Assembly (NCBI GenBank): GCA_046758405.1
Contig: JBHIAD010000001.1
Span: forward strand, 1-36,864
Direction: 5' to 3'
DNA from: Candidatus Methylomirabilales bacterium
GTDB taxonomy: Bacteria > Methylomirabilota > Methylomirabilia > Methylomirabilales > CSP1-5
Length of the DNA stretch: 36,864 nucleotides
The notes below the pieces were generated by a model. That model saw only the letters and a program-made list of their open reading frames with translations, had not been told where the DNA came from and searched no databases. Positions 23,117 to 25,500 of this stretch are shown one piece after another. The position numbers and the translations under genes were made by a program. Every line of letters begins with the position of its first letter. Within the stretch, counting starts at the first letter, position 1.

Positions 23117-24409
23117 TTACGAGGTGCGACGCTCCAGGGGAACGTACTCGCGCCGCTTGTGACCGAGGTAGACCTGCCGGGGGCGGACGATCTTCTGCTC
23201 CTCGTCGAGGATCATCTCCTCCCACTGGGCAATCCATCCGACCGTCCGAGGGATGGCGAAGAGGACGGGGAACATGATCATCGGAAAGCCCATGGCCTGG
23301 TAAATGAGCCCGGAATAGAAATCCACGTTCGGGTAGAGACGCCGCCGCACAAAATAGTCATCCTCGAGGGCGATGCGCTCAAGTTTCAGCGCCACGTCGA
23401 GGAGCGGATTCCGCTTGCTCACCTCGAAGACCTGATCCGCCAGGCGCTTGATGATCTTGGCGCGCGGGTCATAGTTTTTATAGACCCGGTGGCCGAAGCC
23501 CATGAGGCGACCCTCTCCCGCCTTGACCCGCTTGATGAAGTCCGGAACCTTCTCCACAGAGCCGATGGCCTGCAGCATGCGCAGGACCGCCTCGTTGGCC
23601 CCCCCGTGAAGCGGCCCGTAGAGGGCTGCCGTCGCCGCCGCGATCGCCGAGTAGGGGTCAGCGTGGGAGGAGCCCACCACCCGCATGGCCGTGGTGCTGC
23701 AGTTCTGCTCATGGTCCGCGTGCAGGAGGAAGAGCACATCCAGGGCCTTCTCCAAGACGGGGTTCGGCCGGTACTTGACCTCGGTCACCTTGTCAAGCAT
23801 GTTCAGGAAGTTGCCGGTGTAGCTCAGGTCATTATCCGGATAGGCGTAAGGCATGCCGATACTGTGGCGATAGGCAAAGGCCGCCAGGGTCGGCATCTTG
23901 GCGATGAGCCGGAGGGCCTGCTTCTCCCGCGACGCCGCGTCATGGATGTTCTTGGCGTCGGGGTAGAACGTCGAAAGGGCACCGACGGTGCCCACGAGGA
24001 TGCCCATCGGGTGCGCGTCGTAATGGAAGCCGTCCATGAACTTCTTGATGTTCTCGTGAATCATCGTGTGGTGGATAATCCGGTAGACCCAGTCATCCAG
24101 CTGCTCCTTAGTCGGGAGTTCCCCATGCCGGATCAGGTACGCGGTCTCGAGGAATGTGCTGTGTTCCGCCAGCTGCTCGATAGGGTACCCTCGGTACAGC
24201 AGCACGCCCTTGTCGCCGTCCACGTAGGTGATCCGGCTCTGGCAGGTGGCGGTGTTGACCATTCCCGGGTCGTACAACATGAGACCAAGGTCCGTCTCGG
24301 AGGTCTTGATCTGGCGCAGGTCACTTGCGCGGATCGTCCCGTGCGTGATGGGGATCTCGTAGGTCTTCCCGGTCCGGTTATCCGTAATCGTCAGGACATC
24401 CCTGGCCAT
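23117..24409 (-). CDS. gltA: Citrate synthase (type II, GltA-like)
   Basis: 430 aa. LLHADHEQNCSTTAMR, GPLHGGANE, GFGHRVYKNYDPRA catalytic motifs. I used the start at MARDVLTITDNRTGK (24409). Confidence 0.9.
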   Translation of the reverse strand: MARDVLTITDNRTGKTYEIPITHGTIRASDLRQIKTSETDLGLMLYDPGMVNTATCQSRITYVDGDKGVLLYRGYPIEQLAEHSTFLETAYLIRHGELPTKEQLDDWVYRIIHHTMIHENIKKFMDGFHYDAHPMGILVGTVGALSTFYPDAKNIHDAASREKQALRLIAKMPTLAAFAYRHSIGMPYAYPDNDLSYTGNFLNMLDKVTEVKYRPNPVLEKALDVLFLLHADHEQNCSTTAMRVVGSSHADPYSAIAAATAALYGPLHGGANEAVLRMLQAIGSVEKVPDFIKRVKAGEGRLMGFGHRVYKNYDPRAKIIKRLADQVFEVSKRNPLLDVALKLERIALEDDYFVRRRLYPNVDFYSGLIYQAMGFPMIMFPVLFAIPRTVGWIAQWEEMILDEEQKIVRPRQVYLGHKRREYVPLERRTS

Positions 24410-24481
24410 CCCACTACCCCCTCTGCCGGGTGAACTCCACACCTCCCGACTGCCCCGCCGCGGCTTCCGGCTAATGCTATC

Positions 24482-24629: not shown

Positions 24630-24712
24630 AAAAAAGAACGCCCCGATGGTGTCTGCGGTCGAGGCATAACGCCTGTCACCCGCCCCGCGGATGAAGCGCG
24701 GGACCATCGGGG
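24630..24712 (-). terminator. Possible minus-strand terminator: a 10-bp closing helix around two small hairpins, followed by a U-tract
   Basis: ccccgatggt (24641-24650) is the exact reverse complement of accatcgggg (24703-24712). The helix encloses aggc-ataac-gcct and cccgcg-gatgaag-cgcggg. On the minus strand it is followed by cgTTcTTTTTTccc (24640-24627). Confidence 0.3.
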
Positions 24713-24980
24713 TCGGTGGTGCCTGGGCCCCCCCCAGGCGGCCACCCTGACTGAAACTGGGGGCCTGGCCTAGGAGGCCACCACCTCACAGATCACCGGA
24801 CATCTACCTATCACGGCTGGATCACCTCCTCTCTCGGCGTACCCGCCCCGCGGGCCCAACTCCCACACCCCCTAACCCGGCCGCCGCGACCGAGCACGGG
24901 TGGCGACCCGCGCCACGCGCCCCCATTGACGCACGCCGCGCACGGGGCCTGTGTGCACCCCGACCGCCGGAGGCATCTTA

Positions 24981-25012
24981 ACCGGGTGAGGCCACCCGGT
25001 CCAGCGTTTTTT
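24981..25012 (+). terminator. Intrinsic-terminator-like hairpin on the plus strand
   Basis: accgggtg / aggc / cacccggt is a perfect 8-bp stem with a 4-nt loop. It is followed by ccagcg and then TTTTTT (25007-25012). No plus-strand gene lies upstream of it. Confidence 0.35.
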
Positions 25013-25095: not shown

Positions 25096-25500
25096 TCAGC
25101 GTGTGGAGCTGGCCGCCCGCATGCCCACCATGGCCAGCATCCCCGTGATACCCATGAGGCCCAGGACGAGGAGTCGGGAGAGGAGACCTGTGCGATACTG
25201 ATCTGAAGTGAAGACATCCGGGAGATGGAAGAGGCCTGCTCCGATGAACCAGACCAGGCCAACGCCGACGTGGAGCAGGTGCCCCCGTCGGCGGTCGTGG
25301 GCCGACAGCACCAGGGCAATGCCCTGCAGCGCGTACAGGGCGGCGAGCGCTCCGGCCAAGACCGCGTTGGAGAGGCCCAAGGCGGCGGCCTCTCCGTAGA
25401 AGAAATCCTCCGCCGCATGGGGCACCGTGAAGAGATAGCTCACGATTGAAACCGTCAGGACCCCGTAGGCCCGCCTCCGGACCGCCATCAGATCCCCCAC
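25096..25500 (-). CDS. Small integral membrane protein, unknown function (about 4 TM helices)
   Basis: 134 aa with four hydrophobic stretches (VLTVSIVSYLF, VLAGALAALYALQGIALVL, VGVGLVWFIGAGLF, LLVLGLMGITGMLAMV). Overlaps the SDR stop by 13 nt. No motif I recognise. Confidence 0.6.
   Translation of the reverse strand: MGDLMAVRRRAYGVLTVSIVSYLFTVPHAAEDFFYGEAAALGLSNAVLAGALAALYALQGIALVLSAHDRRRGHLLHVGVGLVWFIGAGLFHLPDVFTSDQYRTGLLSRLLVLGLMGITGMLAMVGMRAASSTR

Follow-up and report, generated by a model that had tools for sequence, protein, structure and literature searches.

This study analyzed a window of 36,864 nucleotides, namely positions 1 to 36,864 of contig JBHIAD010000001.1 from a metagenome-assembled genome (MAG) of a Candidatus Methylomirabilales bacterium, and focused on a noncoding 17-mer in this window that is identical to the 3' end of 16S rRNA. 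The 17-mer lies in a gap of approximately 535 nt between the citrate synthase gene gltA and a membrane-type open reading frame (ORF). The plus strand at positions 24814-24830 reads CGGCTGGATCACCTCCT, followed by CTCT, and the minus-strand RNA at this site reads AGAgAGGAGGUGAUCCAGCCGu. An earlier note, made from the sequence alone, had pointed out this identity and had considered possible roles for it on either strand. On the basis of the findings presented herein, we consider it likely that the 17-mer mirrors, in antisense, the ribosome-binding site of a separate structured-RNA gene on the minus strand, approximately 335 nt in length, that represents a long form of the Ms_IGR-5/rre type of mini-ORF RNA with a giant Shine-Dalgarno (SD) sequence. 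The features of the locus are listed in Table 1.

The MAG (1.66 Mb, 74% complete) yielded no 16S gene in a genome-wide search with RF00177, and the 16S comparison was therefore made with relatives. The 16S 3' end was ...GTGCGGCTGGATCACCTCCTTTCTAAGGAG in five relatives of the same family and three of the same order. The 17-mer is therefore an exact copy of the 16S 3' terminus of the lineage, and the identity described in the earlier note was thereby borne out. In the MAG, the 17-mer occurred as a single copy with up to one mismatch allowed, and a reversed control pattern returned 0 matches. The exact complements of the 16S tail in the genome numbered 17 at 12 nt or more, 4 at 13 nt or more, 2 at 14 nt or more, and 1 at 17 nt, the longest being the site at 24814-24830. 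The second longest was a 14-nt complement, GGAGGTGATCCAGC, followed by GCC GTG, on the minus strand of contig C57 of the genome, at approximately offset 1762; judged from its sequence, it may be another unusually long SD sequence ahead of an ordinary gene.

Rfam at its gathering thresholds returned no match in the window, ARAGORN detected neither a tRNA nor a transfer-messenger RNA there, and a Pfam search of the short ORFs overlapping the gap returned no match. A promoter and terminator scan of the window reported nothing meeting its criteria, owing to the inner hairpins of the terminator stem and the weakness of the -10 box. When relatives were searched at the DNA level, the central 260-340 nt of the gap was detected at 73-78% identity in 12 sister-genus genomes, and the element was kept in all 12 of the sister-genus genomes holding the locus. 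The probability of approximately 1e-5 that had been estimated for a chance 17-mer match in the window was reproduced by a uniform-composition estimate. A chance origin is rejected decisively, however, by the conservation of the element in these 12 relatives and in 204 of the 251 genomes of the phylum.

The alignment of the family sequences revealed a constant order on the minus strand: a -10-like box, conserved hairpins, the segment GCGCCGAGAGAGGAGGTG[A/G]TCCAG[C/T]CGTG, an ORF of 13-14 codons, the invariant GGTGATCTGTGAGGTGGTGGCCTCCTAGGCC, a hairpin of variable length, and then a conserved 3' domain with a stem and a U-run ending near 24632. The -10 box was assigned by resemblance to the consensus in an alignment of 13 family sequences and long forms of other lineages; the relatives carry TATGAT, TACCAT, TAGGAT, TACGAT, or TATAAT at the same distance, approximately 8-12 nt before the first hairpin, and the RNA is predicted to begin approximately 8 nt past the box. 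A perfect 8-bp hairpin, ACCGGGTG-AGGC-CACCCGGT, was also observed at 24966-25003, where the plus strand continues with CCAGCG and TTTTTT; it was absent from the output of the scan tool. This hairpin overlaps the spacer and -35 region of the RNA promoter, just past the end of the minus-strand membrane-protein ORF, and could terminate either plus-strand (antisense) transcription or, weakly, that of the minus-strand gene upstream.

Table 1. Features of the RNA locus and its neighbors; minus-strand features of the RNA are given in the 5' to 3' direction where the numbers descend.
Feature	Positions	Strand	Remarks
Citrate synthase gene (gltA)	23117-24442	minus	Pfam PF00285, E = 5e-141
Membrane-type ORF of no assigned family	about 25096-25500	minus	flanks the gap on the other side
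-10 box TAAGAT	24980-24975	minus	consensus-type, putative, from alignments
Whole RNA, predicted start to U-run	24967 to 24631	minus	approximately 335 nt; from conservation and the RNAalifold fold
5' domain	24967-24842	minus	absent from the short (Rfam) form; helices 1-5 each with 1-6 pairs changed on both sides
Helix 1	24965-24962 with 24908-24905	minus	5' domain
First hairpin	24961-24957 with 24948-24944	minus	5' domain; CACAG in loop 24953-24949
Second hairpin	between first and long hairpins	minus	5' domain
Long hairpin	24902-24889 with 24881-24869	minus	5' domain
Helix 5	24866-24862 with 24854-24850	minus	5' domain
Extended SD sequence AGAGAGGAGGTGATCCAGCCGT	24834-24813	minus	17 nt exact complement of the 16S tail; 22 nt with G.U
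Flanks of the SD core		minus	5' flank AGAGA, 3' flank UCCAGCCG
Mini-ORF GTG..TAG, MIGRCPVICEVVAS	24814-24770	minus	14 codons; frame and stop position conserved
CUGUG	24791-24787	minus	proposed pseudoknot partner of the CACAG loop, 24953-24949
Four-way junction	24785-24715	minus	GGUGGU (24785-24780, in the ORF) closes with ACCACC (24720-24715)
Stop-codon hairpin GGCCU-CCU-AGGCC	24779-24767	minus	2 covarying pairs
Variable hairpin	24764-24743	minus	inside the four-way junction; well supported
Hairpin GCCUGGGG/CCCAGGC	24739-24721	minus	inside the four-way junction
Three-way-junction intrinsic terminator	24714-24631	minus	helices 14-16 with 5, 1, and 4 covarying pairs
Terminator outer stem	24714-24704 with 24649-24639	minus
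Terminator inner hairpins	24702-24684 and 24683-24655	minus	loop of the first, CUUCAUCC; UCACC in relatives
Terminator U-run	24638-24632	minus

The fold was predicted with RNAalifold from an alignment (A1) of 14 long forms comprising the family of the window and Rokubacteria-type relatives. The fold contained 87 pairs, 32 of them with compensatory changes, and 95.7% of the cells of the alignment were paired at these positions. By comparison, shuffled alignments yielded 13.3 ± 2.1 covarying pairs (0 of 500 reached 32), and alignments with slid partners yielded 2-11. Good support was obtained for the helices of the 5' domain and the three-way terminator and for the stop-codon and variable hairpins. 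A synonymous GUG to GUU change in the stop-codon hairpin was offset by a C to A change past the stop codon, and the helix GGUGGU/ACCACC that closes the four-way junction exhibited an exchange of U-A for C-G in Nitrospirota. The helices that connect the SD sequence and the ORF (CGCC/GGUG, UCCAG/CUG-UGA, and CCG/CGG) and GGUGGU/ACCACC were invariant in A1, and covariation is consequently silent on them.

Several further features of the folded RNA were observed. In five sister-genus RNAs (L011-L014 and L139; for example, L012:834-1310), the variable hairpin holds an insert of 130-170 nt of lower GC content, for which no Rfam family match was found. Two small anti-SD copies are present in the RNA, one at 24689-24696 in the terminator loop and the other, CCUCCU, at 24772-24777, ending at the U of UAG. 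The loop of the terminator domain reads UCACC in relatives and UCAUC in the RNA of the window; it has the same letters as 16S AUCACC and is complementary to the GGUGA of the SD sequence and ORF. A pairing of the UCACC loop with GGUGA was considered, and both of its sides were invariant, as was the CCUCCU copy.

Several features identify the minus strand as the RNA strand: it carries the T-run and the -10 box, the Rfam match described below falls on it, its helices are rich in G.U pairs, and its fold energy is lower (-182 kcal/mol, compared with -150 kcal/mol for the plus strand). Many of the covarying pairs are G.U and would be A.C mismatches on the plus strand. These findings bear on two proposals for the 17-mer, namely a remnant of the boundary of an rRNA operon, and a plus-strand RNA whose anti-SD mimic would titrate SD sequences or rRNA-processing factors. 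The plus strand does equal the 16S 3' end over 17 nt. Nevertheless, the upstream sequence proved to be as unlike 16S as had been remarked, with no 16S or internal transcribed spacer similarity beyond the 17-mer, no RF00177 match in the window or genome, and nothing rRNA-like at E values up to 10. Moreover, the element is single-copy, is conserved as part of a minus-strand structured RNA, and is probably transcribed as a gene of its own. We thus give almost no credence to either proposal. The minus-strand alternative of the earlier note, a super-SD sequence followed by GTG and a 14-codon ORF, was the right reading.

When Rfam was searched at relaxed thresholds, RF02471 (Ms_IGR-5) matched the window over its full length with 22.4 bits (E = 0.005; model positions 1-184; 24633-24840, minus strand). 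The sister-genus copies scored 25-33 bits, and short forms in the same order scored 50-84 bits (cut-off, 45), one per genome; 37 of the 251 phylum genomes exceeded the cut-off, with one copy each. The RNA of the window is thus continuous with accepted RF02471 members, with one locus per genome and above-cut-off forms in sister families. The short forms of the phylum start with ...TACACAAGAAAGGAGGTGATCCAGTG directly past the -10 box and encode M..WT[C/G]EV[I/A]VT. The architecture shared with RF02471 comprises an extended SD sequence complementary to the 16S tail, a mini-ORF of 12-17 codons that reads xGU GAG GUG and stops three codons on, a hairpin between the 3' part of the SD sequence and the ORF, a terminator with two inner hairpins, and a single copy per genome; the terminator architecture is common to the short form. 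The RNA of the window differs from Ms_IGR-5 in having an additional covarying 5' domain of approximately 130 nt between the promoter and the SD sequence, a CAC element in a hairpin loop rather than at the 5' end, a spacer of 10 nt rather than 7 nt between the SD sequence and the start codon, a complement that reaches 7 nt into the 3' strand of 16S helix 45, and a four-way junction past the ORF. In addition, its lineage is not Actinomycetota, whereas Rfam lists Ms_IGR-5 as "Actinobacteria sRNA" (small RNA).

The core motif, GGAGGTGRTCCAG-N15-45-TGAGGTG, was present in 204 of the 251 genomes of the phylum, which record titles suggest to be Methylomirabilota/Rokubacteria, in 94 of the 104 genomes of high quality, and in 62 of the 68 genera (reversed control, 0), almost always as one copy per genome. 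A few phylum genomes carried two copies (G160, and G054 on contigs C39 and C40); the copies in G160 were identical and located 2.5 kb apart on opposite strands (G160:C9:872365-874999). Within the phylum, most of the class has the same 17-nt complement, AGGAGGTGATCCAGCCG, followed instead by ATG. The family of the window (f1) carried only the long form, at a single locus. In 11 genomes of families f4, f6, f2, and f8 (for example, G017, G019, G015, and G041), several of which are more than 95% complete, neither the exact motif nor an RF02471 match was found; these genomes may have lost the RNA or may carry a more divergent form.

A species-level genome collection was then scanned with AGGAGGTGRTCCAG-N15-40-GTGAGGTG, and at least 120 stretches were obtained, 80 of which were made into loci. 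Among the matches listed, record titles placed the motif in at least eight other phyla; the titles included Actinomycetota (Micromonospora, Nocardioides, Mycobacterium, Pseudonocardia, and others), Acidobacteriota, Candidatus Methylomirabilis/Methylomirabilota/Rokuibacteriota, Nitrospirota, Myxococcota, Thermodesulfobacteriota, Zixibacteria, and Ignavibacteriales. Long forms with the 5' domain were found in Rokubacteria-type genomes, Nitrospirota, Myxococcota, and several "delta" MAGs. One locus titled 'Desulfuromonadales bacterium' (L139, JAAXQF010000163.1) had an RNA nearly identical to those of the sister-genus loci L012 and L014, and its label or binning is probably wrong.

Evidence of transcription was obtained for a Rokubacteria long form (L115; minus-strand RNA, 5431 to 5090). 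In four independent metatranscriptomes from soil, rhizosphere, and sediment, contigs covered 5128-5417/5478, with a depth of 0 in both flanks, and the word depth in one run was approximately 1000-1850 over the 5' domain. This coverage is consistent with a discrete and abundant transcript of which the 5' domain is a part. For a Methylomirabilis-like short form, the transcriptome contigs spanned at least 1 kb, too long to resolve the unit.

The RNA is located upstream of gltA on the same strand, and its small ORF is followed by a terminator, an arrangement that would be expected of a translated leader or attenuator of the citrate synthase gene. In the sister genus, however, gltA is not nearby; the loci there have a GntR-like or SRPBCC-like gene in place of gltA and the membrane-protein gene, other genes, including that of the GntR-like regulator, follow the RNA, and the neighbors differ again in other lineages. 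A promoter-like sequence, TTGACG-N17-TACGCT (24510-24482, minus strand), was read by eye between the terminator and gltA, below the criteria of the scan tool, and suggests that gltA has a promoter of its own. The lack of conserved neighbors and this promoter-like site together indicate that the RNA is a separate gene rather than a leader. Homologues have also been mapped as separate sRNA units, both in Streptomyces, where Ms_IGR-5 is expressed (PMC8079986, PMC8780764), and in M. smegmatis, where Ms_IGR-5 (IGR-5) is expressed as ncMSMEG15794c (PMC10454040). We regard a leader function as extremely unlikely. Leader-peptide attenuators, such as those of the trpL type and the Cys-rich leaderless small ORFs of mycobacteria, resemble the RNA in their tiny ORF, alternative structures, and terminator; unlike them, the RNA of the window has no conserved downstream gene, no runs of regulatory codons, and an extreme SD sequence.

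The RNA of the window can pair without interruption with the last 22 nt of 16S when G.U is allowed, and the last base of its exact 17-nt complement (24814) is the G of the GTG start codon. In all 13 of the family sequences, 22 consecutive positions could pair with the 16S tail on the same terms, compared with 17-19 in short forms; the variants of the SD sequence within the family (A/G twice and C/U once) all keep the 16S pairing as G.U. The predicted helix 6 (24839-24836 with 24826-24823) holds the 5' half of the SD sequence in its loop, whereas the 3' half of the SD sequence is predicted to be paired internally (helices 6-8, invariant). A pairing of GAUC in the SD sequence with GAUC in the ORF was dropped, its ORF side being free to vary in Rokubacteria (GCUC, GUUC, GUCC, and GAGC). 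In the ribosome, approximately 15 nt of the 16S tail is single-stranded (helix 45 of E. coli comprises nucleotides 1506-1529). With a free tail of this length, the last 7 nt of the complement (CAGCCGU) face the 3' strand of helix 45; an internal partner, CGG..CUGUGA of the ORF, is also predicted for the same bases.

The ORF had been correctly read in the earlier note, with a GTG start and 14 codons on the minus strand, including the stop codon within 24814-24770, although it was regarded as unsupported. This judgment was too cautious. In 80 of the 80 loci from the pattern scan, an in-frame GTG, TTG, or ATG lay 7-14 nt past GGAGG, the frame read xGU GAG GUG, and the stop codon was exactly three codons past GAG GUG, giving ORFs of 12-17 codons; GAG GUG was fixed by the search pattern, whereas the start, frame, and stop were free of it. 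The start, frame, and stop position are therefore conserved across phyla, and the insertions and deletions in the ORF within the phylum are multiples of three. The N-terminal half was free to vary, residues 2-6 differing within one genus. By contrast, the last 27 nt of the ORF in the 13 family sequences exhibited only two substitutions, both non-synonymous, and zero synonymous ones, a pattern that points to constraint on the 3' part as RNA rather than as peptide. An internal SD-like GAGGUG is present at 24787-24782 (minus strand), 9 nt before the stop codon.

This anatomy resembles that of rreB and rreR, which were described in Alphaproteobacteria (Hahn et al., RNA Biol 2017, PMC5711450). The rreB RNA of Bradyrhizobium (B. 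japonicum) is an mRNA of 165 nt; it has a 14-codon ORF and complements the 16S end over 17 nt, the G of GTG included (PMC5711450). It cosediments with 30S subunits, to which it is tightly bound, and is weakly translated; it is stabilized when the start codon is removed, and its function was called elusive (PMC5711450). The RNA of the window shares with rreB and rreR a perfect 16S complement of at least 16 nt that ends in the first base of GTG (16-17 nt in rre; here 17 nt, AGGAGGTGATCCAGCCG, with G at 24814), a short ORF (14-18 codons in rre; here 14), an SD sequence of which the 5' part alone is predicted to be single-stranded, and an independent small transcript, which is predicted for the window. 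The gene of the window also stands alone, but its RNA would be approximately 335 nt rather than 165 nt in length, rreB being without the 5' domain. The likeness observed is one of arrangement; the peptides of rre and of the window are unrelated, those of rreB and rreR differ as well, and the only alphaproteobacterial hint in the relaxed Rfam scan was the Caulobacter sRNA CC2171, at a chance level (11.5 bits, E = 6). Binding to 30S subunits, weak translation, and start-codon-dependent decay were reported for rreB only (PMC5711450). A literature search for functional work on Ms_IGR-5 or rre after their first descriptions found none.

The 5' domain and the ORF appear to be joined by a pseudoknot. 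The first 5' hairpin of the long forms has an apical loop that complements the five bases ending at the first G of GAGGUG, and the pair of sequences differs by lineage: CACAG/CUGUG in the window and its phylum, CACUC/GAGUG in Nitrospirota, and CACCA or CACCG/UGGUG in Myxococcota. In a mini-alignment (A3) of 14 sequences from Methylomirabilota, Nitrospirota, and Myxococcota, which was built by hand, the five pairs were paired in 14 of 14 sequences, and the two variable pairs were distributed as AU9/UA3/CG2 and GC7/CG3/GU3/AU1. In 61 of 75 short-form sequences, the base past the 5'-terminal CAC is paired with the one that precedes GUGAGG, compared with 36 in shuffles, 0 of 2000 of which reached 61. 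A compensatory change was forecast beforehand and then seen in two genomes, in which the ORF reads CAGCUGAGG for CAGGUGAGG and the 5' end reads CAGC for CACC (CACC/GGUG to CAGC/GCUG). The CAC/NGUG covariation indicates that the codon before E-V, namely UGU, CGU, GGU, or AGU (C, R, G, or S), is set by RNA pairing.

These findings bear on whether the locus is an ordinary small-protein gene, in which the 14-residue peptide (..VICEVVAS) would be the effector and the long SD sequence would only tune expression. A peptide function accords with the conservation of the start, frame, and stop in every member examined, with the ribosome footprints on Ms_IGR-5 in M. abscessus and M. smegmatis (PMC4974804), and with the conservation of the RreB and RreR peptides within their clades (PMC5711450). 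However, the N-terminal half is variable even within one genus, and the C-terminal codons, which lie in covarying or invariant helices, are fixed at their third positions. The residue before E-V covaries with a nucleotide 5' of the SD sequence, which is an RNA constraint, and the synthetic RreB and RreR peptides were unstructured (PMC5711450). An effector peptide is, in our judgment, improbable.

A trans-acting base-pairing sRNA, in which the purine-rich SD-like stretch would provide the seed for CU-rich targets, or the whole RNA would act as a sponge, the ORF being incidental, would likewise have its own promoter and terminator and no conserved neighbor, and the 5' part of the SD sequence is predicted to lie in a loop, as a seed might; Ms_IGR-5 was moreover recovered as an sRNA with a heterologous Hfq, as described in PMC4109619. 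Nevertheless, in many phyla the complement follows the 16S tail for 17-22 nt, which is far more than a seed needs, and conservation extends to the frame, the stop codon, and a start codon placed at SD distance. Together with the binding of rreB to 30S subunits (PMC5711450), these findings render such a role highly unlikely.

The element STAB-SD, reportedly described by Agaisse and Lereclus in 1996 as an orphan SD stabilizer in the 5' untranslated region of cryIIIA in Bacillus thuringiensis, resembles the RNA of the window in having a strong SD sequence near the 5' end whose role is binding of the 16S tail and not protein output. STAB-SD, however, has no start codon or ORF and lies in the leader of a long mRNA, whereas the RNA of the window stands alone and its start, frame, and stop are conserved.

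From the anatomy of the RNA and from rreB, we infer a ribosome-docking mechanism. A 30S subunit would seed on the exposed AGAGAGGAGG, and its anti-SD tail would then zip along the whole complement, melting the local helices and exposing GUG. Before docking, the 3' half of the SD sequence and the GUG start codon would be folded against the middle of the ORF, and the 3' end of the ORF (GUGAGGUGGUGGCCUCCUAG) would be engaged both in the pseudoknot with the loop of the first 5' hairpin and in the helix that closes the four-way junction. Translation of the mini-ORF would be short and probably inefficient; it would unwind the pseudoknot and junction and end at a UAG held in a hairpin. The functional event would thus be ribosome docking and translation, not the peptide, and docking may set the conformation and lifetime of the RNA or the occupancy of 30S tails. 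Titration of ribosomes by the RNA, which the earlier note had also considered, is conceivable; against this idea stands the finding that rreB overexpression had no effect on growth (PMC5711450).

Several points weigh against the interpretation as a ribosome-engaging RNA gene of the Ms_IGR-5/rre type. The RNA of the window scores below the RF02471 cut-off, and no function has been reported for any member; for rreB, overexpression produced no growth phenotype. In the modeled fold, CCAGCCG may be kept for 16S, with opening of helix 45, or for the internal helices 7 and 8, and its invariance fits both equally. A complement that tracks variants of the 16S tail or helix 45 (for example, in GCGGUUGG lineages) would show pairing past the free tail, whereas a fixed CCAGCCG would favor the internal helix. 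The support for the pseudoknot comes from a hand-assembled mini-alignment with few independent events, and the forecast compensatory change was absent in a Rokubacteria subclade (G130, G131, and G133; AUGUG), in which the pairs are A.A or G.A; the terminal pseudoknot pair is therefore not universal. The contigs that cover L115 come from relatives, are strandless, and merge related organisms, and the sequencing runs that hold the window itself included no RNA run, only DNA runs from hydrothermal-vent metagenomes.

A single-copy RNA present in approximately 90% of the good genomes of the phylum and in many other phyla is presumably important. To what was known of this class, the present analysis adds a long form that the Rfam model misses, together with a covariation-supported fold for it, and a tiny ORF that is constrained as RNA and as a translated frame but not as a peptide, one "amino acid" of which is dictated by the CAC-ORF pairing. 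Such loci are left as empty gaps in annotation or can be mistaken for rRNA debris. A broader proposal, which we hold to be doubtful, is that the Ms_IGR-5 short forms, the long forms with the 5' domain, and the alphaproteobacterial rre RNAs constitute one ancient housekeeping class of ribosome-engaging RNA in many phyla, nearly universal in the phylum of the window, whose ligand would be the free 16S 3' tail, with an extension of 7 nt into helix 45 in the RNA of the window. Free or newly matured 30S subunits would then be sensed, parked, or checked for quality by the RNA, and the CAC/NGUG pseudoknot and mini-ORF would make up a switch, operated by translation, by which the RNA is reset or destroyed. 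The sole mechanistic study concerns the alphaproteobacterial analogue, rreB, and the class can be put to the test in organisms that carry the short form and can be cultured, such as M. smegmatis and Streptomyces.

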